DNA of 53,484 nt from Candidatus Eiseniibacteriota bacterium (GTDB lineage Bacteria; Eisenbacteria; RBG-16-71-46; JAGVPR01): the NCBI GenBank assembly GCA_020052115.1, contig JAGVPR010000320.1:1-53484 (forward strand), written 5' to 3'. Position numbers and translations under genes: made by a program. Positions 9,101 to 43,018 of the stretch are shown one piece after another (within the stretch, counting starts at the first letter, position 1; each line of letters begins with the position of its first letter). The notes beneath the pieces were generated by a model. The model did no database searches and had not been told where the DNA came from. It saw nothing but the letters and a program-made list of their open reading frames with translations.

Positions 9101-10735
9101 CTACGCCTCCGCCGAACTGACCGCGGCCGCCTGCGGGACGCGGCTCGGCGCCGTCCTGGCATGAAGAACAGCCACCTCGGCGGCGGAGAACGGCGACGTC
9201 CGGCCGGCCGTCTCGGTTTCCCCGTGCGTCCGCAGGACGTACTCGTGGAAGTGCTTGTGGACCGTCATGTACGAGATGGCCACGATGAGCTTCTGCACCG
9301 ACGGGCGGTGCCGCATGACGCGCCACACCGTCTGCAGGAAGAACCGCCTCCTCGCATGATCCCGGGAGAGCAGGAAGTACCGGAAGATGCGCGCCGTCAT
9401 TCGTAGCTGCTTGCTCGAGAGTCTTCCCGCGGACCGGCGCGCGGACTCGGGAGAAGGCGCGAACGGTCGCAGGGAATGAACCAAACGCTCGCCGTAGTGG
9501 TCATACCGATACAGGGCGCGGATCATCCACCGGTAGCCGCGGAGCAGCTCCTCGCCGGTCATCTTCTTCGGCACGAAATTCAGGTCGGCGCTGCCGTGGA
9601 CCTGCGCCAGGCTCTCGTCATACTCCAGCAGACGGCCCTCGCGCTTGAGCCGCGCGTGCAGCGGCGTCTGCTCGATGGCGAAGAGCACCCCGGCCGTCGT
9701 GAAGGGAACCCCGGCCTCCTGCAGGAAGTCGAACATCTCCTGGAAGATCCCGATGTCGTCGTTGTCGAACCCGACGATCATCCCGGCGATGACCATCAGG
9801 TTGTACGACTGGACGAGGCGGATGTTCTCGAGGATCGAGCCGCGGATGTTCTGCGTCTTCTTCGTCTCGATGAGGCTTGCGGTGCTCGGAGACTCGATTC
9901 CGATGAAGACACTCTCGAAGTTGCTGTCGCGCAGGAGCTCGAGGATCTTCGGATGCTGGGCGACGTTGAGCGTGAGCTCGGCCGAGAACCGGATCGGGTA
10001 GCCGTTCCTCTCGCCGAAGTCCCTCAGCTCCGTGAGCAGTTTCTCGGCGTACTTCGGGCTCGCGATGAGGTTGGCGTCGGAGAAGGAGATGTACTGCCCT
10101 CCCAGCCGGCGCACCGTCTCGACTTCCCCCATCACCTGCTCGACCGACTTCGTGCGCGGCACGCGGCCGTCGGTGACGATGATGTCGCAGAATTCGCACT
10201 GGAACGGACAGCCACGGGTCGTCTGGACGTAGTAGTAGAGGTACCTCCCCACCGGGAGGAGGTCGTATCGTGGAATCGGCGAGTCGGTCAACTTCACCTT
10301 GCCGCGCTCCTGCTCGTACAGGGCGGCGGGCGCGTGCCCCGCTAGCAGGTCGCTGCAAAACCGCGGCCAGGTGTATTCAGCTTCTCCCACGAACAAGACA
10401 TCGGCGGCGCCCTCGAACCGATCGGGACAGAGGGTGGGATAGGGACCGCCGATCACCACGAGACGCCCCCGGCGCCGGAACTCGGCCGCGATCTCCAGCG
10501 AGCGGGCCCACTGGACGTTGAAGCACGAGATCGCCACGACGTCGCAGGCTGCGTCAAAATCTATCGGATCTATGTTCTCATCCAGGAGTGAAACTTCGAT
10601 TTCGGGCGGAGTGAGAGCGGCGATCGTCGCCAGACCGATCGGCGATTGCGCCGAGTCCACCCCGACGAGTTCGTGGATGCCATGGAAGTTCCACAGCGAG
10701 TCCGGGAAGCGCGGACAGACGAGAAGGATGTGCAT
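9101..10735 (-). CDS. B12-binding-domain radical SAM protein (class B, DUF4070-like C-terminal extension)
   Basis: Start at MHILLVCPRF, with GGAGG 4 nt upstream. N-terminal Rossmann-like B12 domain (VVAISCFN...VVIGGPYPT). Radical SAM cluster motif TTRGCPFQCEFCDI (CxxxCxxC). Confidence 0.85.
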   Translation of the reverse strand: MHILLVCPRFPDSLWNFHGIHELVGVDSAQSPIGLATIAALTPPEIEVSLLDENIDPIDFDAACDVVAISCFNVQWARSLEIAAEFRRRGRLVVIGGPYPTLCPDRFEGAADVLFVGEAEYTWPRFCSDLLAGHAPAALYEQERGKVKLTDSPIPRYDLLPVGRYLYYYVQTTRGCPFQCEFCDIIVTDGRVPRTKSVEQVMGEVETVRRLGGQYISFSDANLIASPKYAEKLLTELRDFGERNGYPIRFSAELTLNVAQHPKILELLRDSNFESVFIGIESPSTASLIETKKTQNIRGSILENIRLVQSYNLMVIAGMIVGFDNDDIGIFQEMFDFLQEAGVPFTTAGVLFAIEQTPLHARLKREGRLLEYDESLAQVHGSADLNFVPKKMTGEELLRGYRWMIRALYRYDHYGERLVHSLRPFAPSPESARRSAGRLSSKQLRMTARIFRYFLLSRDHARRRFFLQTVWRVMRHRPSVQKLIVAISYMTVHKHFHEYVLRTHGETETAGRTSPFSAAEVAVLHARTAPSRVPQAAAVSSAEA

Positions 10736-11156
10736 CGGACCTCCATGGTGCCGGAAGGAGCCGCCGCCCCACCGACTCTGGGCGCGCTCGGCATCACCTC
10801 GATGAGACGCCGACGCCTTACCCGACACCCGCTCTCAAGAGCGTTCCGGGCCGCTCGCTTCGCTAGATTCTTCCCACGGAGACACGACTGTCCACTATTG
10901 GCCTTTGGTCCAACATGGGTTGGGAGGGCGGCTCCTTCGATTTCGACCGAGAGATTCCTTCCCCTTCGCCAGGTGGAACGCGTATCGTCACTTCGCAAGA
11001 CCGACCGACGGAGAGCCTGCGCTTCAGGACCGCTTCTCATCAGGCCTGCGGAGCTTTGGACCGGATCCTGCCTTTGCGTTTCTGTAGCCCGCAGCTCGTC
11101 ATTCTCGCGCCGACCCGGGCGCCTCTGCGCCCGCGGTGCGATGGACCGGAGGGAGC

Positions 11157-33434: not shown

Positions 33435-34817
33435 CTACTTGGCTTCGACGGCATCGCAGCACCCTGCCCCGATGCTTTCCTTGAGCGTCTCGGTCTTCAG
33501 GAGAAAGCTCCCATCGGTGACGATGAATTCTCCCGGTTGAAGACCTTCCGTGACGGCGACAAGCTCTCCATCCGAAGGGCTGGTCCGCACGCGTCTCGTT
33601 TCGAACTCATCGTCGGAAACGGGCACGAAAACGAGCTGGACTCCCTTGGCCTCCTGGATCGCCGCGCGCGGCACAAGCACGGCGGATGTACCGGCGGTCG
33701 CGAAGATATGGGCGCGGGCGAACATGTTGGCCCGAAGCACGCCGCCTCGATTCGGGAGGGCTGCACGAGCCCGGATCGTCCTTGTTTGGGGGTCAACGAT
33801 CGGCGCGACGTATCGAATGCTCCCCTCAAACTCCTGATCGCCGAGGACGTCCACCTTGAGAACGACCCGCTGCCCAGGCGAGACTCGACCGGCCTGCGAT
33901 TCGGGGATGTCAATGTCGGCCCACAAAGACGAGATATCAATGATCTCGAAGACGGCCTCCCCCTCGCCGACCAGCGTGCCGACCGTGAAGTTGCGTTTCG
34001 TGACGACTCCGCCGATAGGGGCTCGAAGCTCATAGGCTCCTGACTCCCCATCGTCCGCGCCCACCATTTCGAGCGCGGCGAGGGCGGCGCTGACCTCGGC
34101 GCGTGCTTCCTGGAGCGCTTGTTCCGCGGCCTGGACTTCCTTCAGGGCCGATATCCCTCGGTCGTACAGATTCCTTTCACGCGAGTGGCTCGCCTCGGCG
34201 ACCCCGGCACGGGCTCTTGCCGCCCTGAGCCGGGCGCGCGATTCGGCCACGGAAGCGCTTTCGACGATCGCCAAAGGCGCGTCTTTCGCTACCACCGAGC
34301 CGAGATCGACAGTGAAGGCTCGGATCACGCACGGTGTTCGAGCGTTGACCAGAGCGCTCTTGGCATTGTCCGCAACGATCGTCGCCGTTGCGATGATGGT
34401 GCCGGCCTCTCCCCCAGGGATGGCCTGTTCGGTCCGGATGCCTGCTTCCGCCACCACGTCGCTGGATTGAAGCTTGACGCGCATCCCGTTGGGTGGCGCC
34501 TCGTCCGTGGCGACATCCAAAGAAGGCCTCCCGCCTCTCTCGGGATGGCAGAACGGACAGAAGGACTCGGGGAACTCATGCTCCGCGCACCAGTCGCCCT
34601 TGGCCTTGAAGATCGGAACGAGCTTCGGATTGCACCTGGTGCAGACCGCTTCCAGCAGGCCGTGCTCGGCGCACATGCCTTCCGTGTTCGAGGCCGCTGC
34701 GGGCAGGGCCTTGGCGACGGCACCTCCGGGCTCGGCCTGTGAAGTGCCGCCGGTCCGCTGACAGGAAATACCCAAGATGGCCAGCGCCAGGGCCGGGACG
34801 AGCATGATTGCGCGCAT
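33435..34817 (-). CDS. czcB: RND periplasmic adaptor (MFP) lipoprotein with an N-terminal tandem Cys/His motif domain
   Basis: ILGISC lipobox. Two copies of C-x-E-H-x3-E-x2-C-x2-C (MCAEHGLLEAVCTRCNP; WCAEHEFPESFCPFCHP). These are followed by typical MFP barrel-sandwich, hairpin and beta-barrel regions. Confidence 0.85.
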   Translation of the reverse strand: MRAIMLVPALALAILGISCQRTGGTSQAEPGGAVAKALPAAASNTEGMCAEHGLLEAVCTRCNPKLVPIFKAKGDWCAEHEFPESFCPFCHPERGGRPSLDVATDEAPPNGMRVKLQSSDVVAEAGIRTEQAIPGGEAGTIIATATIVADNAKSALVNARTPCVIRAFTVDLGSVVAKDAPLAIVESASVAESRARLRAARARAGVAEASHSRERNLYDRGISALKEVQAAEQALQEARAEVSAALAALEMVGADDGESGAYELRAPIGGVVTKRNFTVGTLVGEGEAVFEIIDISSLWADIDIPESQAGRVSPGQRVVLKVDVLGDQEFEGSIRYVAPIVDPQTRTIRARAALPNRGGVLRANMFARAHIFATAGTSAVLVPRAAIQEAKGVQLVFVPVSDDEFETRRVRTSPSDGELVAVTEGLQPGEFIVTDGSFLLKTETLKESIGAGCCDAVEAK

Positions 34818-34818
34818 C

Positions 34819-35145
34819 TTACTTTCCCTCCGGCTTCGGCGGCCGGACGATCTTCAAGTCCGGGTTGCAGTCCAGGCACTGGGACTCAGGTAGCCCGTGT
34901 TCTTCGCACCAGTCTTTCGTGGCCTTGAACGCCGGAATGAGCGCGGGGTCACAGCGCGTGCACGCGCTCTCCGGGACATGGTGCTCTTCGCACCAATCCT
35001 CATAGGACCCCGGCACGACGTTGGACGAGGCATGGATTGCGGAACCCGCGGGCGTGCCCTCCGATTGGCCGGTCTGCTTCGTCCCTTCACCACACCCCGC
35101 GATGACGATGCTCAGAGCCAAAGGAGCAAGAAGAAATCTGCTCAT
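34819..35145 (-). CDS. Small periplasmic lipoprotein made of two C-x-E-H-x-x-P-E-S-x-C-x-x-C-x-P repeats (putative metal-binding accessory protein)
   Basis: IVIAGC lipobox. WCEEHHVPESACTRCDPALIPAFKATKDWCEEHGLPESQCLDCNP is clearly paralogous to the N-terminus of the adjacent MFP. There is a 1-nt gap to the MFP start. Confidence 0.7.
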   Translation of the reverse strand: MSRFLLAPLALSIVIAGCGEGTKQTGQSEGTPAGSAIHASSNVVPGSYEDWCEEHHVPESACTRCDPALIPAFKATKDWCEEHGLPESQCLDCNPDLKIVRPPKPEGK

Positions 35146-35163: not shown

Positions 35164-36390
35164 TCAGTGTGTTGGCAATGCCCCCGTTGATACCGTCAGA
35201 TCTGCGCCGGCCAGTGCCGCGTCGAGCAGCCGGTCGGCATGCTCGCGCCGCGTATCGAGGGCGTTGGCGCGCACCACGAGGAGCGCAGGAAGATCGAGCT
35301 TCCCCGCCTCGTAACTTTCCCGCGCGAGTGATTCCGTCTCGATGGCGCGTGGAAGTCCGCGCTCTTCGATTTCGCGTGCGGATGTGACCGCGCTTCGGTA
35401 ACCGTTTCGAGCTCCTTCGGCCTCGGCCATCGCGGCGGTTCGCCGCGCCGCGAGCTCGACTTGTGCGCGCGCGTGCCGTGCCTCGGCTTCACCTCGGGCC
35501 CCCTGGCCATAGTTGAAAATGGGCAATGAGACGGCCAAGCCGGGGCGGACGATGTCCTCAACCCGCGAGCGCTGGTAGTTCAATTGGAAGGCGAACCCCG
35601 GGAGTCGGGCCGATCGCGCGACGGACACGGCGGCTCGAGCGGCCTTCACCTCGCTCTCGGCGGCCAGGACGCCGGGCCGCCGTCCCGGGTCCGCGGAGGA
35701 GTCCAGGGCGTCGAAGAGAGATCGGTCAGCCAGATCACCAGACACCTCGAGTGCGGCGCCGGACGCCAGGCCAAGCATGGCCGCGAGTTCTACGCGCGAC
35801 TGCGTGACGCTCCGTTCCTCCGCCAGAACCTCGCTCTCCGCCCGCGAGAGCTCCCCCTCCGCCACAAGAAGCTCCAGGCGGGGTGCATCGCCCGTGCGGA
35901 CCTTCTCGGAGGCGACGCGGCGAAGCTCCTCTGCGAGATATCGACGGTCCTCAGCGATCGCCTTCCGCTCCTCGGCATGGAGAACTCTGTAGAAAGCCGC
36001 CAAGGCCAGCCCGACTGCGCGCCGCTGAACATCAACGACCAGATGCGCTTCGAGTTCCATGCCCGCTCTCGCCTCCGCGACTCGTCGGGCCCGCTGGAGA
36101 CCAAAACCGAGAGGAATCTGAAGTCCGATCTCGGTGGCACGATCAAGGCTCTCGCCGGAGCCCCGGAGGGCTTCGATTACGGGATTGTCCACCCCGAGCG
36201 CTCGGGCTCCCGCGAGGTGGCCCTTCGCTTCGAGCAACCGTGTTTCGGCGATCAGAACCTCGGGAGCGCCGGCCGCGGCCAGCCTCACAACACTCTCCGC
36301 GGTGAGGGGCTCGGCAAGCGCGTCCGGCGGAAGGGCGCTCGGGATCGCGCTTGCCAAGAACGCGCAAATGGCAAAGAACAAACGTGTCAT
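35164..36390 (-). CDS. czcC: TolC-family outer-membrane efflux factor
   Basis: Signal peptide, ~400 aa, Ala/Arg/Glu-rich two-repeat coiled structure typical of the OEP family. First large gene of an OMF-MFP-RND operon. Confidence 0.8.
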   Translation of the reverse strand: MTRLFFAICAFLASAIPSALPPDALAEPLTAESVVRLAAAGAPEVLIAETRLLEAKGHLAGARALGVDNPVIEALRGSGESLDRATEIGLQIPLGFGLQRARRVAEARAGMELEAHLVVDVQRRAVGLALAAFYRVLHAEERKAIAEDRRYLAEELRRVASEKVRTGDAPRLELLVAEGELSRAESEVLAEERSVTQSRVELAAMLGLASGAALEVSGDLADRSLFDALDSSADPGRRPGVLAAESEVKAARAAVSVARSARLPGFAFQLNYQRSRVEDIVRPGLAVSLPIFNYGQGARGEAEARHARAQVELAARRTAAMAEAEGARNGYRSAVTSAREIEERGLPRAIETESLARESYEAGKLDLPALLVVRANALDTRREHADRLLDAALAGADLTVSTGALPTH

Positions 36391-36569: not shown

Positions 36570-36866
36570 CTAGGCCAACGAGGGTTTTGGAACGTGGAGG
36601 ATTTCGGCTGGCTCTGGAAGCGGCGGCGTGTTCGTGGGCGGCGTCAAGATGACTGTAGGCGCAAGACTCGGAGATGGAGTGTCGAACTGCGTCGCGGCGA
36701 CCTGGTTCCGCTCCAGGCAGCAAACACAGAGCGGGCAAGAAGTAGCGCACGCATCCCGAGGGGCTGCCTCATCGGACTCGCAGCAGCTATCAGCAGGACA
36801 CAGCGCCAGGGCGGCATGCTGCCCGACCGAAAGGAGCACGAGGAAGCTTAACATTAAGTAACGCAT
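36570..36866 (-). CDS. Small secreted Cys-rich protein (98 aa, 8 Cys), unknown function
   Basis: Signal peptide MRYLMLSFLVLLSVGQHAALA, then LCPADSCCESDEAAPRDACATSCPLCVCC and a Pro-rich tail ending ILHVPKPSLA. Same strand as the OMF gene, 180 nt upstream of it. Confidence 0.5.
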   Translation of the reverse strand: MRYLMLSFLVLLSVGQHAALALCPADSCCESDEAAPRDACATSCPLCVCCLERNQVAATQFDTPSPSLAPTVILTPPTNTPPLPEPAEILHVPKPSLA

Positions 36867-37047: not shown

Positions 37048-37449
37048 TCAGGCGCTTCCGCCATCCGGGGGAACCCCGCCAACATCTCCGTCATCAGATA
37101 CGTCCGACCAGATCGCAGCGTCGCCGCGTTCCCCTGTCCGAACCCGAACCGCTTCCTCCACCGGAAGAACGAAGACCTTGCCGTCACCGCGGTTGCCGGT
37201 GTGAGCGGAACCACACAACGCCTGGACGGCAGCAGCGACCATCTCATCCCGCACGAAGATCTCCAGCCGGAGCTTGTGAGTGAACTCCTCCAGTTCTTCC
37301 TGCAGGCTGTGCGTCCTGGACATCTTCATCCCCCGACCGAATCCTCGGACCTCGGAGACCGACATGCCCGGAAACTCCGGCAACTGCAGGAGGGCCGCGG
37401 TGATCTTGTCAAGAAGGAACGGCTGTACGAATGCTCGAATCTCCTTCAC
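37048..37449 (-). CDS. P-II (GlnB)-superfamily protein with a divergent T-loop, at the end of an RND operon
   Basis: MKEIRAFVQPFLLDKITAAL...MSVSEVRGFGRG...GDGKVFVLPVEEAVRVRTGERGDAA. The T-loop lacks the usual Tyr-containing RGAEY. Lies 25 nt after the RND stop. Confidence 0.8.
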   Translation of the reverse strand: MKEIRAFVQPFLLDKITAALLQLPEFPGMSVSEVRGFGRGMKMSRTHSLQEELEEFTHKLRLEIFVRDEMVAAAVQALCGSAHTGNRGDGKVFVLPVEEAVRVRTGERGDAAIWSDVSDDGDVGGVPPDGGSA

Positions 37450-37474: not shown

Positions 37475-40400
37475 TTAGAATTCCGCCCGCTCCCGCTCGA
37501 ACCACTTGTAGAGGGTCGGCAACACCACCAAGGTCAACAGCGTCGAGGTAAAGAGGCCGCCCACCACGACCGTAGCAAGCGGTCGTTGCACCTCAGAACC
37601 GATGCCGTGCGAAAGCAGGAGCGGGATGAGGCCCAAGCTCGCCGCGGTGGCGGTCATGAGAACCGGCCGCAGCCGTCGCTCGCATCCCGTGCGGATGGCA
37701 TCATCAAGAGCGAGACCTTCGCGGCGTAGCTGATTGATGTACGACACGAGGACCACGCCGTTCAGAACCGCCACGCCAAACAGCGCAATGAATCCAACAG
37801 AGGAGGGAACGCTCAAATACTGTCCGGAGAGGTAAAGCGCCCAGATTCCGCCGATCATGGCGAATGGGACGTTGAGCAGGATCAGCAGCGCGTTCCGAAC
37901 CGATCCGAAGGACAGATAGAGAAGGACGAAGATCAGAAGAATGGCAAGCGGGATCACCACGGCCAAGGTCTTCTGCGCCCGCTGTTGATTCTCGAACTGC
38001 CCCCCCCACACCACATAGTACCCCTCAGGCAACCGGACCTTCCGGTCCATCGCCTGCATCCCCTCCTTTACGAAGCCCCCGAGATCCCGGTCCCGGACGT
38101 TGCACTGGATCACGACCCGGCGTTGAGCAGCTTCCCGGCTCACGATGGGAGGACCTTCCTGCACCTCGACGCTCGCAACCCTGGAGAGGGGCACGCGGGC
38201 GCCGGAGGGGGTCGACACGAGCAAGTTGCGGATAGCGTCAATGTCCTTTCGATTCGCCTCTGCCAACCGAAGGTACACGGCGAATCGCTTCTGGCCGTCA
38301 AGGATTTCGGTCACCTCTTGGCCGCCGATCGCGTTGGAGACGAGGTTCATTACGTCATCAACGTTTACCCCGAAGCGGGCGATCTCGTCCCGATCCACGG
38401 CGACGACGATCTGCGCCTCGCCGCTCACGGCTTCAAGCGCAACGTCTCTTGCGCCCGGAATCGAGCGGATCACGCTTTCAATCTCCCGGCCTTTCCTCTC
38501 CAGCACGCCCAGATCCTCGCCGAAGAGTTTGACCGCAATCTGGGCCTTCACGCCGGCAAGGAGTTCGTCCACGCGGGTCGCAATGGGCTGGCTGAAGTTG
38601 AGCAGGATGCCGGGGTGCTGAGAGAGATCCGTCTCAAGTCTCGCCACGAGTTCGCCCCTTGACCGGACCGTCTTCCACTCGCTGATCGGCTTCAGTCCGA
38701 CGAAGATCTCATTATTCGAGATCCCCTCGGGATCGCCTCCAAGCTCCGCTCTCCCAATCTGTGAGAAGGTGTAGGTGACCTCCGGGTAGCGCATGATGAG
38801 CTTCTCCATGCGCGTCGAAATCCGCTTTGCCTCCTCCAGCGACACACTCGGATTCATCGTGACGCGGATCGTCAGCGTGCCCTCCTCGAGTTCGGGGACG
38901 AACTCGCTCCCCAGGCGCGGCAGCACCGCCAGTGCGCCGACCAGGAGCGCGACCCCGATTCCCAGGACCATGAAGCGCCGTCGGAGAGCCACCCCCAGCA
39001 CCGGAGAATAGACCCGGTGAAGGAAGCGCATGAGAAAGCTCTCCTTCTCGGACAGCCTCCCCTGAAGGATGTAGGTCGCCAGCACCGGCACGACGGTCAG
39101 GGCGACAAGAATCGACCCGAGCATGGCGAAGCTGATCGTGAAGGCCAGAGGCTTGAAGAGCTTCCCTTCAACGCCCTGCAGCGTGAACAGTGGAAGAAAA
39201 ACGACCACGATGATCAACACCGCGAAGAACACGGGAGAAGCGACCTCTCGCGCCGCGTGGAGGATCGATCCCCCCCGCCCCTCTCCCGTCGCCGCAGCCT
39301 CCGCGCGGTGACGGAAGATGTTCTCCACCATCACGACGGAGCCGTCCACCATCATCCCGATCCCGATCGCGAGCCCGCCGAGCGACATGAGGTTGGCGGA
39401 AACGCCGAACCGATTCATCATCACGACCGCGATGAGGATCGATAGCGGTATCGAGAGAACCACCAGAAGCGCGGACCGCACGTTCCAAAGAAAGAGAAAG
39501 AGGATGACGACAATCAGCACGACCGAGAGCAGTAGCGCATCCGTGACCGTCCGAACGGCATGGGCGACCAAGTCCGCCTGGTCGTAGACGGACACGATCC
39601 GCACATCCTGCGGGAGCGTCTTCTGAATCGAAGCGATCTTCTCCTCGACGCGCTCGATCACATCCTTCGTATTGGCTCCCTTGAGCATCAGGACGATTCC
39701 GGCCACCACTTCGCCGCGGCCGTTCATCGTCACGGCCCCCTGCCGGATCTCGCCGCCGTACCCGACCTCGGCGATGTCCCGCACGTAGACCGGCGTGCCG
39801 TCGATCGACTTGACGACGACGTTCCCGATGTCAACGAGACCCGGCTCCCCCCCTCGAATCAGACCCGTCCCCCGGATCACGAACTGCTCGGATCCCTGGT
39901 CCAGATACCAGCCGCCGGCATTCCGGTTGTTCCTGCCGAGCGTCTCCGCGATCTCGTTCAACGTCAGGTCATACTTCAGGCACTTGGTCGGATCGACACG
40001 CACTTGGTACTGGCGAACCTCGCCCCCGAAACTCAGGACGTCCGTGACGCCAGGCACCGTTCGCAGCTGGAACTTCACTGTCCAATCATTCAGTGTCCGA
40101 AGGTCCATGGCGGAGCGCGCATCGCTTTCCAGCACATACTTGTAGATCTGCCCCAATCCGGTCGTAATCGGGCCGAGTTCGGGATCCCCCAGTCCGTCCG
40201 GAATCTCTTCCCTTGCGACCTGAAGCCGCTCAAGAACGAGCTGGCGGGCGAAGTAGACATCGACGTCGTCACGGAACACGATTGTGACGACGGACAGGCC
40301 CGTCTTCGACATCGAGCGGACGTCTGTAATCCCGGGCAGACCGCTCATCGCCGCCTCGATCGGAAAGGTCACGAACTGCTCCACCTCGACTGCAGCAAGG

Positions 40401-40564
40401 CCAGGGGATTCCGTGTTGACCTGTACTTGCACATTCGTGACATCCGGGAACGCATCCACGGGGAGGTGGAGCACGGCATAGACGCCGTAGGCCACCAGGA
40501 GTACTGCTAGGACCAGAACCAGGAAGCGCTGCTTGAGCGCCGATTCAATGGCGCGCTGGAGCAT
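37475..40564 (-). CDS. Heavy-metal-efflux RND pump, second paralog (TM4 motif AIG-DGS-VEN)
   Basis: 1029 aa, by-eye roughly 40-50% identical to the first pump over the N-terminus. TM4 reads LAIGIGMMVDGSVVMVEN; the first Asp of the DFG motif is absent. Confidence 0.88.
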   Translation of the reverse strand: MLQRAIESALKQRFLVLVLAVLLVAYGVYAVLHLPVDAFPDVTNVQVQVNTESPGLAAVEVEQFVTFPIEAAMSGLPGITDVRSMSKTGLSVVTIVFRDDVDVYFARQLVLERLQVAREEIPDGLGDPELGPITTGLGQIYKYVLESDARSAMDLRTLNDWTVKFQLRTVPGVTDVLSFGGEVRQYQVRVDPTKCLKYDLTLNEIAETLGRNNRNAGGWYLDQGSEQFVIRGTGLIRGGEPGLVDIGNVVVKSIDGTPVYVRDIAEVGYGGEIRQGAVTMNGRGEVVAGIVLMLKGANTKDVIERVEEKIASIQKTLPQDVRIVSVYDQADLVAHAVRTVTDALLLSVVLIVVILFLFLWNVRSALLVVLSIPLSILIAVVMMNRFGVSANLMSLGGLAIGIGMMVDGSVVMVENIFRHRAEAAATGEGRGGSILHAAREVASPVFFAVLIIVVVFLPLFTLQGVEGKLFKPLAFTISFAMLGSILVALTVVPVLATYILQGRLSEKESFLMRFLHRVYSPVLGVALRRRFMVLGIGVALLVGALAVLPRLGSEFVPELEEGTLTIRVTMNPSVSLEEAKRISTRMEKLIMRYPEVTYTFSQIGRAELGGDPEGISNNEIFVGLKPISEWKTVRSRGELVARLETDLSQHPGILLNFSQPIATRVDELLAGVKAQIAVKLFGEDLGVLERKGREIESVIRSIPGARDVALEAVSGEAQIVVAVDRDEIARFGVNVDDVMNLVSNAIGGQEVTEILDGQKRFAVYLRLAEANRKDIDAIRNLLVSTPSGARVPLSRVASVEVQEGPPIVSREAAQRRVVIQCNVRDRDLGGFVKEGMQAMDRKVRLPEGYYVVWGGQFENQQRAQKTLAVVIPLAILLIFVLLYLSFGSVRNALLILLNVPFAMIGGIWALYLSGQYLSVPSSVGFIALFGVAVLNGVVLVSYINQLRREGLALDDAIRTGCERRLRPVLMTATAASLGLIPLLLSHGIGSEVQRPLATVVVGGLFTSTLLTLVVLPTLYKWFERERAEF

Positions 40565-40594
40565 GAAGGACCTCCCCTTGAGGAATCAGTTGCC

Positions 40595-41731
40595 CTATTC
40601 CCCGAACCCGCTCTTGAGCATCTCCGACTTGAGGGTGAACGCCCCATCGGTGACGACGGAGTCTCCCTCTTGCAGTCCGCGGGTGATCTCGACATCGGCT
40701 CCAGACGTGACACCCGGATCGACATCCTGACGGAAGAATCGGCCGTCCCTGGCGACGAACACGAAGCGCGTCATTCCCTCTTGTTGCAATGCCCCGGCAG
40801 GGATAGCAAGCGCTTGCCGCGCTGGGCCGCGATCGATGTCGCCGTCGACGAACATCCCGGGCTTCAATCGGCCGTCCTGATTGGCGACCTCGACGCGGAC
40901 CTTCACTGTCCGCGTTGCTTCGTCCATCACGTTGTTCACGAGAGCGACCTTGCCGGTGAACACGTCATCCGAATAAGCGCCTACCTTGATCAAGACGCCG
41001 GCCCCGACCTTCACCGAAGCGAGGTCCTTCTCGAACACATCCAGTAGGGCCCAGACGGTGCGGAGGTCCGAGATAAGGCACACTTCGGTTCCCGCCTCGA
41101 CGCGATGGCCCGGGACCATGGTGTTTTCCAGAATGGTCCCGTCAAAGGGCGAATGGAGATGGAGGGTCGGGCTGACCTCGCCTGCTTGCAGCAGGGCATC
41201 GAGCTCTTCCTCGCTCTCCCCGAAGAGGAGGAGCCGTTTTCTGGCAGAAGCGTAGATGGCGCGCGTCGTTTCGATCTCCGCTGCATCACCTTTCGCCTCA
41301 GCCTTCTCGAGACGACTCCGGGCACCGAACAATTCCCCTTCGGCCGTCTGGTATTCGGGGCTGTAGATCGTTAGAACGATGTCCCCGCGTCGAACATGGT
41401 CCCCTTGGATCCGCCGGACTTCCTCCACCCAGCCCGGAAGGCGGCTTACGATTCGGGTCACACGGCGACCGTTGACCTGGATCTCTCCTGTCGCGTGCGT
41501 GCGGTCCCATACTTCCCCATAGCGGACCGGCTCGGTCCTCACCTCTGCCAGTGCGCGCGATGCGGCGGAAAGTGCGATCCCCGCGACGGCGGCGTCCCCT
41601 GACGGCACCGCGCTGGACGTGTCCTCGGCCACGCTTCCATCCGTGGACCTTCTGTCCCCGCACCCGGGGAGAAGGGCGGCGAAGCTTGCCGCCAGGAGGA
41701 GTGAGAGTGCGCTTCGGGTCCTGTGGTGCAC
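40595..41731 (-). CDS. RND periplasmic adaptor (MFP) lipoprotein
   Basis: LLPGC lipobox. MFP-typical lipoyl/hairpin/beta-barrel layout. No Cys/His N-terminal repeats. Confidence 0.85.
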   Translation of the reverse strand: MHHRTRSALSLLLAASFAALLPGCGDRRSTDGSVAEDTSSAVPSGDAAVAGIALSAASRALAEVRTEPVRYGEVWDRTHATGEIQVNGRRVTRIVSRLPGWVEEVRRIQGDHVRRGDIVLTIYSPEYQTAEGELFGARSRLEKAEAKGDAAEIETTRAIYASARKRLLLFGESEEELDALLQAGEVSPTLHLHSPFDGTILENTMVPGHRVEAGTEVCLISDLRTVWALLDVFEKDLASVKVGAGVLIKVGAYSDDVFTGKVALVNNVMDEATRTVKVRVEVANQDGRLKPGMFVDGDIDRGPARQALAIPAGALQQEGMTRFVFVARDGRFFRQDVDPGVTSGADVEITRGLQEGDSVVTDGAFTLKSEMLKSGFGE

Positions 41732-41743
41732 GGTTCCTCCAAT

Positions 41744-43018
41744 CTATGGCTCGATGTCGCCTGCAGCGTCCAGCCGAGCCCGTGCGGAAAGATACTGATA
41801 GAGTGAGCGGCTGTACTCGGTCCGGGAGTCAATGTAAGTCCGGTAGATGTCTATCAGGTTCAGAGCGTCAACCTGATCCGTGCGGTAGGCATCGATTCCC
41901 GCGCGCAGCTCGCTCTCGATATCGTCCAGGATCGAGGATTCGAACAGATTCACCTGTGCGCGTGTGGTGATGACAGTTTCAAAGGCCTGTTCAGCAGCCG
42001 TGCGCACCGCTCGTTGCGCCGCGGTAAGATTCACTTCTTCTCGACCGACGTTTGCACCCGCCTCCCGGACCATCCCTGTTGGCGCCGTCCACCACCAGAG
42101 CGGCAGCGCCAAGCCGAGTCCCGTCCCCCACCTTGCGGTCGTCTCGCCTCCATCTCGGAGCTTCGTCCCCGAGAGCTGGATCTCTATGTCGGGCAGCCGT
42201 TCCTTCCCCGCCAGCTTTCGCGCGGCTCGCGCCGCCTCCAGCCTCACCCTCGCCGCCTCAAGGAGAGCACTCTCTTCCACCACTCGGGAGATTGCCGCCT
42301 CTCGGTCGAGCGTTTCCTGCGGCGCGACAAGGGGTGTCACGAGTTCGATCCGTCCAGATCCTGGCCTCCCCATGAGCAGGTTCAGGTCCGCTCTCGCGCG
42401 CTCCGCCTCGCGTCGAGCCTCGAGGAGATCGTTGCGCAGGCGACTCAGCTCGACTTTCGCTCGGACAACGTCGAGGTAGCCCCCACGGCCGACCTCAAAA
42501 CGACTCCGAGTAGTCTGAAGGAACTCGGTCAGGAGGGCTTCCGACGTCTCCAAGCTCTGAACTCTCTCCTCTTGAAACCGTGCGAAGTAGTAGGTCTCTT
42601 TCACGCCAGCCCCCAGCCGTCTCTGGATCCGGCGCTCGTCCGCTTGAAGCGATCGAACCTCGAGACCGGCTACTTCCCCCCGGAGTCCGCGCTTGCCGGG
42701 AAACGGGATCCCCTGCGTCACTCCGAGTGTGGTCGTTGCCGCCCGATCGAGGCGTGCACCTGCGATCTCATCGACGCCCACGGTGAGTTGGGGCGGTTCG
42801 AGGCTCGTGGCGACGATTACCCTCCCGCGAGCGGCCTCGATTTCCCGAGCAATCGTCTGGATCTCGGGATTGTGGGACAGAGCGGCCTCGATCGCCTGAT
42901 CCAGAGTGAGAGAAGCTAACTCCTCGGTGGTGGCGGGCGAGCCCTGCGCCCGGGCCCTGGATGGCGCGAGGGAAATCACTGTCAGAGCGAGAAACAGGAT
43001 GCCTCCGCACAGCCGCAT
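41744..43018 (-). CDS. TolC-family outer-membrane efflux factor
   Basis: Signal peptide MRLCGGILFLALTVISLAPSRARA. OEP-like two-repeat composition. Operon position. Confidence 0.8.
   Translation of the reverse strand: MRLCGGILFLALTVISLAPSRARAQGSPATTEELASLTLDQAIEAALSHNPEIQTIAREIEAARGRVIVATSLEPPQLTVGVDEIAGARLDRAATTTLGVTQGIPFPGKRGLRGEVAGLEVRSLQADERRIQRRLGAGVKETYYFARFQEERVQSLETSEALLTEFLQTTRSRFEVGRGGYLDVVRAKVELSRLRNDLLEARREAERARADLNLLMGRPGSGRIELVTPLVAPQETLDREAAISRVVEESALLEAARVRLEAARAARKLAGKERLPDIEIQLSGTKLRDGGETTARWGTGLGLALPLWWWTAPTGMVREAGANVGREEVNLTAAQRAVRTAAEQAFETVITTRAQVNLFESSILDDIESELRAGIDAYRTDQVDALNLIDIYRTYIDSRTEYSRSLYQYLSARARLDAAGDIEP

Follow-up and report, generated by a model that had tools for sequence, protein, structure and literature searches.

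Positions 1-53,484 of contig JAGVPR010000320.1 of a Candidatus Eiseniibacteriota bacterium (assembly GCA_020052115.1), a stretch of 53,484 nucleotides (nt) referred to here as the window, carry an operon for a heavy-metal efflux (HME) system of the resistance-nodulation-division (RND) type, in which a small lipoprotein gene lies between the genes for the outer-membrane factor and the periplasmic adaptor and shares with the latter a tandem repeat rich in cysteine. All of the operon features that concern us are on the minus strand (Table 1). The genes are tightly packed: 18 nt separate the stop codon of the outer-membrane factor from the ATG of the lipoprotein, a single nucleotide lies between the lipoprotein and the adaptor (TAA-G-ATG) and 12 nt between the adaptor and the pump. 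The adaptor scores above the cut-off of the RND adaptor model TIGR01730 (168.9 versus 94.9 bits) and below that of the narrower CzcB/NccB model TIGR00999 (173 versus 319 bits); the pump scores above the cut-off of the CusA/CzcA model TIGR00914 (1247.9 versus 701 bits). An earlier reading of this DNA, made from the sequence only, had described a stand-alone copy of the repeats next to an adaptor-fused copy, and this is indeed what lies here, in a heavy-metal RND operon.

Table 1. Positions of the features discussed in the text. Positions without a prefix are those of the window; the others are those of the contig or surveyed locus that is named.
Feature	Position	Strand	Evidence or remark
Outer-membrane factor, CzcC/TolC-like, first large gene of the operon	35164-36390	-	Pfam OEP, E 2e-28
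Stand-alone lipoprotein, 108 amino acids, two Cys3-His repeats	34819-35145	-	Open reading frame (ORF), homologues, ratio of non-synonymous to synonymous substitution rates (dN/dS)
Lipoprotein, signal peptide and lipobox, residues 1-18 (VIAG/C18)	35092-35145	-	Cys18 invariant in 27 aligned homologues
Lipoprotein, repeat 1, W51-C52-E-E-H55-x6-C62-x2-C65	34951-34995	-	Motif scan; H55 100%, Cys 94-100% conserved (stand-alone rows)
Lipoprotein, repeat 2, W79-C80-E-E-H83-x6-C90-x2-C93	34867-34911	-	Motif scan; H83 100% conserved
Lipoprotein, tail L-K-I-V-R-P-P-K, in the stand-alone form only	34834-34857	-	R101 and P102 100% conserved
Adaptor, CzcB-like, periplasmic, 460 amino acids, with fused module	33435-34817	-	HlyD_D23, E 7.6e-41
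Adaptor, repeat 1, CAEHGLLEAVCTRC	34632-34673	-	Motif scan, BLASTP
Adaptor, repeat 2, CAEHEFPESFCPFC	34548-34589	-	Motif scan, BLASTP
Adaptor, C-terminal Cys453-Cys454 (…SIGAGCCDAVEAK)	33456-33461	-	GCC tail comparison across loci
Heavy-metal RND pump, CzcA-like, 1031 amino acids	30327-33422	-	TIGR00914; motif of transmembrane helix 4 (TM4) DFGLIVDSSVIMVEN
HME adaptors without the module, with His-rich tails	L007:587-1738, L010:569-2077, L013:1989-3275, L054:1237-2607, L056:1-1431		
Stand-alone variant with two double modules in tandem	L030:5986-6513		
Stand-alone variant with His-rich linker GHGHAHTAGDGHDHG before the module	L067:1936-2295		
Thioredoxin with signal peptide, lipobox and WCQPC, between cadA and czcD	L093 (plasmid pK2D_1, CP036351.1) 10364-10810		
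HMBD sites elsewhere in the genome, in frames of 592 and 222 amino acids	contig C122, 17714-17797 and 12117-12188		
Secreted Cys-rich ORF, 98 amino acids, at the head of the operon	36570-36866	-	No Pfam family; possible further accessory
P-II family protein, closing the second RND operon	37048-37449	-	Pfam P-II, E 2e-20
Second RND operon, adjoining the first	37475-43018		

The lipoprotein precursor runs from a signal peptide and a lipobox, which conforms to the pattern [LVI][ASTVI][GAS]C and recurs in at least 70 of the 80 loci surveyed, through a low-complexity linker to the first repeat, the linker PALIPAFKATKD, the second repeat and the tail PDLKIVRPPKPEGK; both of the repeats that had been ascribed to this protein were thus located, at W51-C65 and W79-C93. 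The adaptor does start 1 nt downstream, as had been said, but it does not begin with its repeats: the precursor has its own signal peptide and lipobox and then a linker, and only afterwards CAEHGLLEAVCTRC and CAEHEFPESFCPFC. In both proteins the lipobox is followed by a linker of 20-35 residues. That the two share the same tandem repeats is confirmed by BLASTP (40% identity over 97 residues, E 4e-19) and by a six-frame scan of the 3.26-Mb, 411-contig assembly with the pattern C.EH.{5,8}C..C, which found four sites only, two in the lipoprotein and two in the adaptor; this goes well beyond what chance would give.

Since the two genes are paralogous and lie 1 nt apart, the small frame might be taken for an artefact, i.e. 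the 5' part of an adaptor gene that has been split or frameshifted, or an ORF that codes for nothing. This reading is refuted by the features of the genes themselves, each having its own signal peptide, lipobox, stop codon and Shine-Dalgarno sequence (GGAGG 6 nt upstream of the lipoprotein ATG and 9 nt upstream of the adaptor ATG, in the latter case within the lipoprotein gene), by the same two-gene layout in 77 loci, by the separate clade that the stand-alone form makes up, and by the dN/dS of 0.09-0.19 of the lipoprotein gene relative to five orthologues, owing to which the ORF can be considered to be under purifying selection. The 108-amino-acid ORF is a real, conserved lipoprotein and a paralogue of the N-terminal module of the adaptor.

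The module formed by the double repeat is a compact family, tied to one pump subfamily and absent from the Pfam and NCBIfam libraries and from the literature searched, where searches on the motif and on Cys-rich adaptor N-termini found no description of it. Homologues of the lipoprotein fall into 1,117 clusters at 90% identity, none of them descriptively named, and a profile search of 1.84 billion representatives gave 777 clusters at 50% identity. Counting one genome per species, a stand-alone relative occurs in 340 species; the carriers include Eisenbacteria-like metagenome-assembled genomes, which are the nearest kin, Zixibacteria, Rokubacteria, Krumholzibacteria and, among the Myxococcota, the cultured Sorangium, Polyangium and Chondromyces. 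The architectures comprise stand-alone proteins of about 100-130 amino acids, longer proteins made of repeats only, HlyD_D23 adaptors whose N-terminus matches the double module two to five times (about a dozen single units, counted by eye, in the adaptor P0123) and one adaptor with an internal repeat insertion; all of the larger module proteins that were checked are CusB/HlyD-type adaptors. Two stand-alone variants were also seen, one with two double modules in tandem and one with a His-rich linker before the module (Table 1).

Whether the stand-alone form always neighbours an adaptor with the fused form, a question already raised by the sequence-only reading, was addressed in the 80 loci, of which 78 have downstream DNA and two end at a contig edge. 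The module-bearing adaptor directly follows the lipoprotein, and is itself followed by an HME-RND pump, in 77 of the 78 testable loci, and this order spans at least eight phyla, among them Eisenbacteria, Myxococcota, Planctomycetota, Acidobacteriota and Gemmatimonadota; among the loci surveyed there is no case of the lipoprotein apart from such a pump. The exception (L067) is a planctomycete in which the small gene trails the CzcA gene. The small two-module lipoprotein also trails czcCBA on pK2D_1, a mobilizable plasmid from a planctomycete in culture, in an island that further contains an HMA protein, cadA, a lipoprotein thioredoxin, czcD and fieF. A role of this thioredoxin, a single case, could be to maintain the metal-binding thiols of the periplasm in the reduced state. 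Of 31 genomes from the class to which our organism belongs, 14 have the module and only 3 have both forms; most of the remaining module genomes show clear fused copies in adaptor-sized proteins, so that in these relatives the fused form is commoner and occurs without the stand-alone one. As the stand-alone gene is present in only 3 of the 14, the fused form is the core of the system and the lipoprotein an optional addition.

In a maximum likelihood tree of 146 double modules, all of the 68 stand-alone modules form one split with support 100/100 and a long branch (1.59), next to which stand the second double modules of the adaptors with several modules. A single old lineage, and not repeated local duplication, therefore accounts for the lipoprotein. 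The stand-alone form is also much more conserved, its copies being 65-89% identical to that of the window and the fused modules 35-54%, and the tail region (profile positions 60-71) finds matches in stand-alone proteins only; instead of the LKIVRPPK tail, the fused copies end in C-P-x-C-H-P-E-R-G-G-R-P.

In the 146 modules both His residues are invariant and the Cys residues are 88-100% conserved. The spectrum of substitutions was followed in 1,023 distinct single repeats, 961 of which (94%) have the ligand set CHCC, the others being CHCH (13 repeats), CHDC (12), DHCC (10) and DHCH (9), with the repeats outside these five sets mostly truncated. His is the most invariant residue (1,014 of the 1,023), and the Glu at +2 from the first Cys and the P-E-S turn are strongly conserved too. 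Where a Cys is missing, Asp or His nearly always stands in its place and the other Cys are kept, with no paired loss. Such lone exchanges suggest a coordination sphere and not disulfide pairs, and sets such as Asp-His-Cys-His would suit Zn, Co or Ni and not Cu(I). The idea that the Cys and His residues of the repeats serve as metal ligands thus fits both their conservation and the way they are replaced, and binding of metal ions by the Cys3His repeats may be regarded as well supported by strong comparative evidence. It could be argued, instead, that the repeats are disulfide-knotted structural units, devoid of metal, in which Cys only stabilises a small secreted fold, as the periplasmic location, the even number of Cys (six) and weak, sub-threshold matches to Cys-knot families would allow. 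Such a knot, which we consider very improbable, would not predict that His is the residue most strictly kept or that a lone Cys is exchanged while its would-be partners are retained, and it is difficult to reconcile with three Cys per repeat, with the occurrence of odd repeat numbers and with a module found only with metal pumps.

In five loci of one lineage (L008, L021, L024, L065 and L045) repeat 2 is DHCH or CHCH in the lipoprotein and CHCH in the adaptor, and the Glu of the P-E-S turn is often a Met. Counted over loci, ligand variants co-occur in the two proteins (5 variant/variant against 62 standard/standard), but this co-variation was rejected as independent evidence, since the variant loci are one lineage; this single clade may reflect a co-ordinated shift of metal preference.

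Structural modelling, already recommended by the sequence-only reading, was done with AlphaFold; it was unusable with only 27 full-length homologues (predicted local distance difference test, pLDDT, 51) and gave a confident model with the 146-row domain alignment (pLDDT 92.5, predicted template modelling score 0.75). Each repeat is predicted as a knuckle-plus-helix unit, in which a hairpin bridged by two residues round C-x2-H leads into a helical turn at C-x2-C; the two repeats are connected by a helix (residues 67-75), and the tail is extended and confidently placed. The predicted ligands would sit on the hairpin and at the start of the helix, an arrangement that may resemble that of zinc fingers of the treble-clef type. 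No structural match was found for the model, and solved structures gave no match to the double repeat by sequence or by profile.

The motif had been called unrelated to that of the copper chaperone CusF, and with regard to CusF itself this stands: the lipoprotein, searched at E up to 1, has no Pfam or NCBIfam match, the double repeat has none above noise, the model shows a hairpin and short helices and no barrel, and the Met2-His site of CusF is missing, because the mature lipoprotein has no Met and its conserved ligands are Cys3His. In a wider sense, however, the word needs some qualification. In the HMBD domain (PF19335; YxCPMHP...CPxCGM), found in CusB-like adaptors and P1B ATPases, the ligands have the same C-x2-H...C-x2-C order, with an aromatic residue before and Leu after, and the domain also occupies an N-terminal position on HME adaptors; its spacer, however, has 10 residues instead of 6, and it lacks the E-H/P-E-S signature. 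A profile-profile comparison with hhalign put the four ligands in register with a score of 18.6, reached by none of 200 column shuffles (8.7 +/- 2.5), and a probability of only 59% (P 9e-5). Short Cys motifs are prone to convergence, and 0 of the 146 modules match the HMBD model at E up to 0.1 (Pfam gathering cut-off 23.6 bits). The similarity to HMBD is to be considered borderline. When the whole genome was searched with HMBD, contig C122 was found, and not the present module; because those sites are genuine HMBD, the organism has both kinds of C-x2-H...C-x2-C module.

The adaptors that bear the module have a second peculiarity at their opposite end. In 66 of the 71 complete ones the chain ends in S-I-G-A-G-C-C-(D/E), whereas five neighbouring HME adaptors without the module have His-rich tails (GHDHAH, GHEH, HHDH) in the place of GAGCC; the whole subfamily would therefore have exchanged histidine for thiolate chemistry. 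In adaptors of the AcrA/CusB type with known structure, the N- and C-terminal segments jointly form the membrane-proximal domain, and for this reason the fused module and the Cys-Cys tail should be adjacent, near the periplasmic entrance of the pump.

The pump itself gives indications on the metal. The motif DFG-x3-D-x6-EN is found in TM4 of 71 of the 73 full-length RND frames of the loci, and DFG-DGA-VEN is the signature of the HME1 and HME2 divalent-cation pumps (Zn/Co/Cd and Ni/Co, respectively; PMC3637150). In the window, DFGLIVDSSVIMVEN keeps both Asp and the Glu, with DSS instead of the published DGA, and the pump, being also above the TIGR00914 cut-off, classifies as of HME1/2 type. The plasmid island points in the same direction, since the two-module lipoprotein is accompanied there by cadA, czcD and fieF besides czcCBA. 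The metal is thus likely to be divalent (Zn/Cd/Co) and not Cu(I). Nevertheless, a Cu(I)/Ag(I) chaperone, i.e. a true functional analogue of CusF for a monovalent-cation pump, has to be weighed: Cys-rich sites bind Cu(I) avidly, the order of the ligands resembles that of HMBD in CusB-like adaptors and copper ATPases, and a second RND operon, whose pump has AIG in TM4 where the first has DFG, adjoins the first (Table 1). We judge it very improbable, as the adaptor of the AIG-type pump is without the module, the divalent signature prevails among the module-associated pumps, the plasmid context is one of cadA, czcD and fieF, and substitutions by Asp and His, as in DHCH, suit Zn or Co and not Cu(I).

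Among known systems, the CusF/CusB logic had been invoked for this locus. As in CusCFBA of E. coli and in SilF-SilB, a small, putatively metal-binding periplasmic protein is encoded in an HME-RND operon beside the adaptor. CusF passes its metal to CusB and then to CusA, and the membrane-proximal N-terminus of CusB binds metal (PMC8277102), as that of the present adaptor presumably does. CusF, however, is soluble and folds as a beta-barrel, binds Cu(I)/Ag(I) at a Met2-His(Trp) site and has a fold unrelated to the Met site of CusB, unlike the present system, in which donor and acceptor would be paralogues, both lipid-anchored, with Cys3His ligands and a pump of divalent type. CopZ/Atx1 and the CopA-type P1B ATPases also have free and transporter-fused copies of one Cys-based fold, with a variable number of fused copies, and there the metal is exchanged between like sites. 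This would be, in principle, the closer analogy, because donor and acceptor share one fold and those of CusF and CusB are unrelated. The CopZ/CopA system differs in being cytoplasmic, with a ferredoxin-like HMA fold (no HMA match was found in the module by Pfam scan), a two-Cys site and an ATPase, whereas the present module is periplasmic, with four-ligand knuckle-plus-helix mini-fingers, and its fused partner is an RND adaptor. His-rich termini are known on CzcB-type adaptors. In ZneB of Cupriavidus metallidurans the divalent substrate binds to the adaptor itself, as it would here, and the beta-barrel domain takes part in ligand binding (PMC8277102); the interdomain Zn site of that protein and the CzcB tails use His and Glu on the adaptor core or tails, in place of the discrete Cys3His domains, the Cys-Cys tail and the extra stand-alone copy of the present system.

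Taken as a whole, we find it somewhat probable that the lipoprotein is a lipid-anchored metal-binding accessory of a Cys-type subfamily of CzcCBA-like systems, acting by capture of metal and hand-over or as a switch. The product of the 108-amino-acid gene would be a lipid-anchored periplasmic protein whose folded part consists of two tandem 28-residue mini-fingers, each holding one divalent ion through Cys-x2-His on the hairpin and Cys-x2-Cys at the start of the short helix; it would be an optional accessory to an adaptor that likewise has a lipid anchor followed by the double module, with Cys-Cys at its C-terminal end. We infer the identity of the metal and the membrane that anchors the lipoprotein. 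The tethered modules would first bind those divalent cations of the periplasm that are thiophilic (Zn2+, Cd2+, Co2+), and the metal would then move by ligand exchange from the lipoprotein to the N-terminal module of the adaptor, to its C-terminal Cys-Cys and to the entry of the pump; alternatively, loading of the adaptor module with metal would switch the pump on. The hand-over and its direction, with a chaperone step by analogy, would amount to a one-domain periplasmic thiolate relay to a Zn/Cd/Co pump, which we put forward tentatively.

Several facts weigh against such a relay. Closed Cys3His sites with four ligands are typically those of tightly bound structural zinc and not those at which metal is transferred, and in the periplasm the Dsb system normally oxidises thiols. 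Furthermore, no conserved cysteine able to accept a thiolate-bound ion was found in the partner RND pumps, where only a few subfamily-specific Met/His positions are present, and the pump would work without the lipoprotein, given the small share of related module genomes that have the stand-alone gene. The main rival is consequently a structural or switch role, in which structural zinc, or the substrate ion, stays permanently bound and the fingers serve for protein contacts: metal occupancy would fold them and activate or assemble the pump, and the lipoprotein would dock on the adaptor ring through its LKIVRPPK tail with no metal handed over. The usual structural role of four-ligand Cys3His sites in zinc-finger chemistry, the invariant tail of the stand-alone form, which the fused form lacks, and the far stronger conservation of the lipoprotein compared with the fused copies, as expected of a surface that contacts a partner, all agree with it, and so does the functioning of the fused module without the lipoprotein in most of the kin genomes. 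We still regard it as rather unlikely, because the number of fused repeats varies widely, which is easier to understand if they provide capacity or act as an antenna than if they form a fixed docking surface, and because the change of the adaptor tail from His-rich to Cys-Cys points to substrate chemistry.

To our knowledge, no periplasmic partner like CusF has been described for RND pumps of the Czc type (Zn/Cd/Co). The Zn chaperone PmcY, reported only in 2026, belongs to another class of transporter (PMC13231896). If the relay were true, it would be the first like-to-like hand-over in the style of CopZ/CopA for an RND system and for divalent cations, and it would define a 'Cys-type' branch of the Czc pumps together with a new metal-binding fold. 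The module offers, in addition, a testable handle on the route of divalent metal to the pump, on the survival of thiol sites in the periplasm and on the sensing of substrate by adaptors, and it deserves an entry as a domain family, which would name thousands of 'hypothetical lipoproteins'.

Two further genes of the neighbourhood are worth mentioning. The second RND operon is closed by a gene for a P-II family protein, and in Geobacter sulfurreducens Co(II) is reported to induce a czcCBA operon, GSU2133-2137, that also encodes a P-II protein and a lipoprotein (PMC7726332); the likeness is to the second operon of the window, through the P-II gene, with no link to the Cys3-His module established. 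At the head of the first operon, the secreted 98-amino-acid ORF has eight Cys. Homologues precede this cluster in 11 of the 80 loci if E <1e-3 is required and in 14 if the limit is set at E 0.01, and most of these loci belong to closer relatives; the ORF may represent a further Cys-based accessory of the same pump subfamily.

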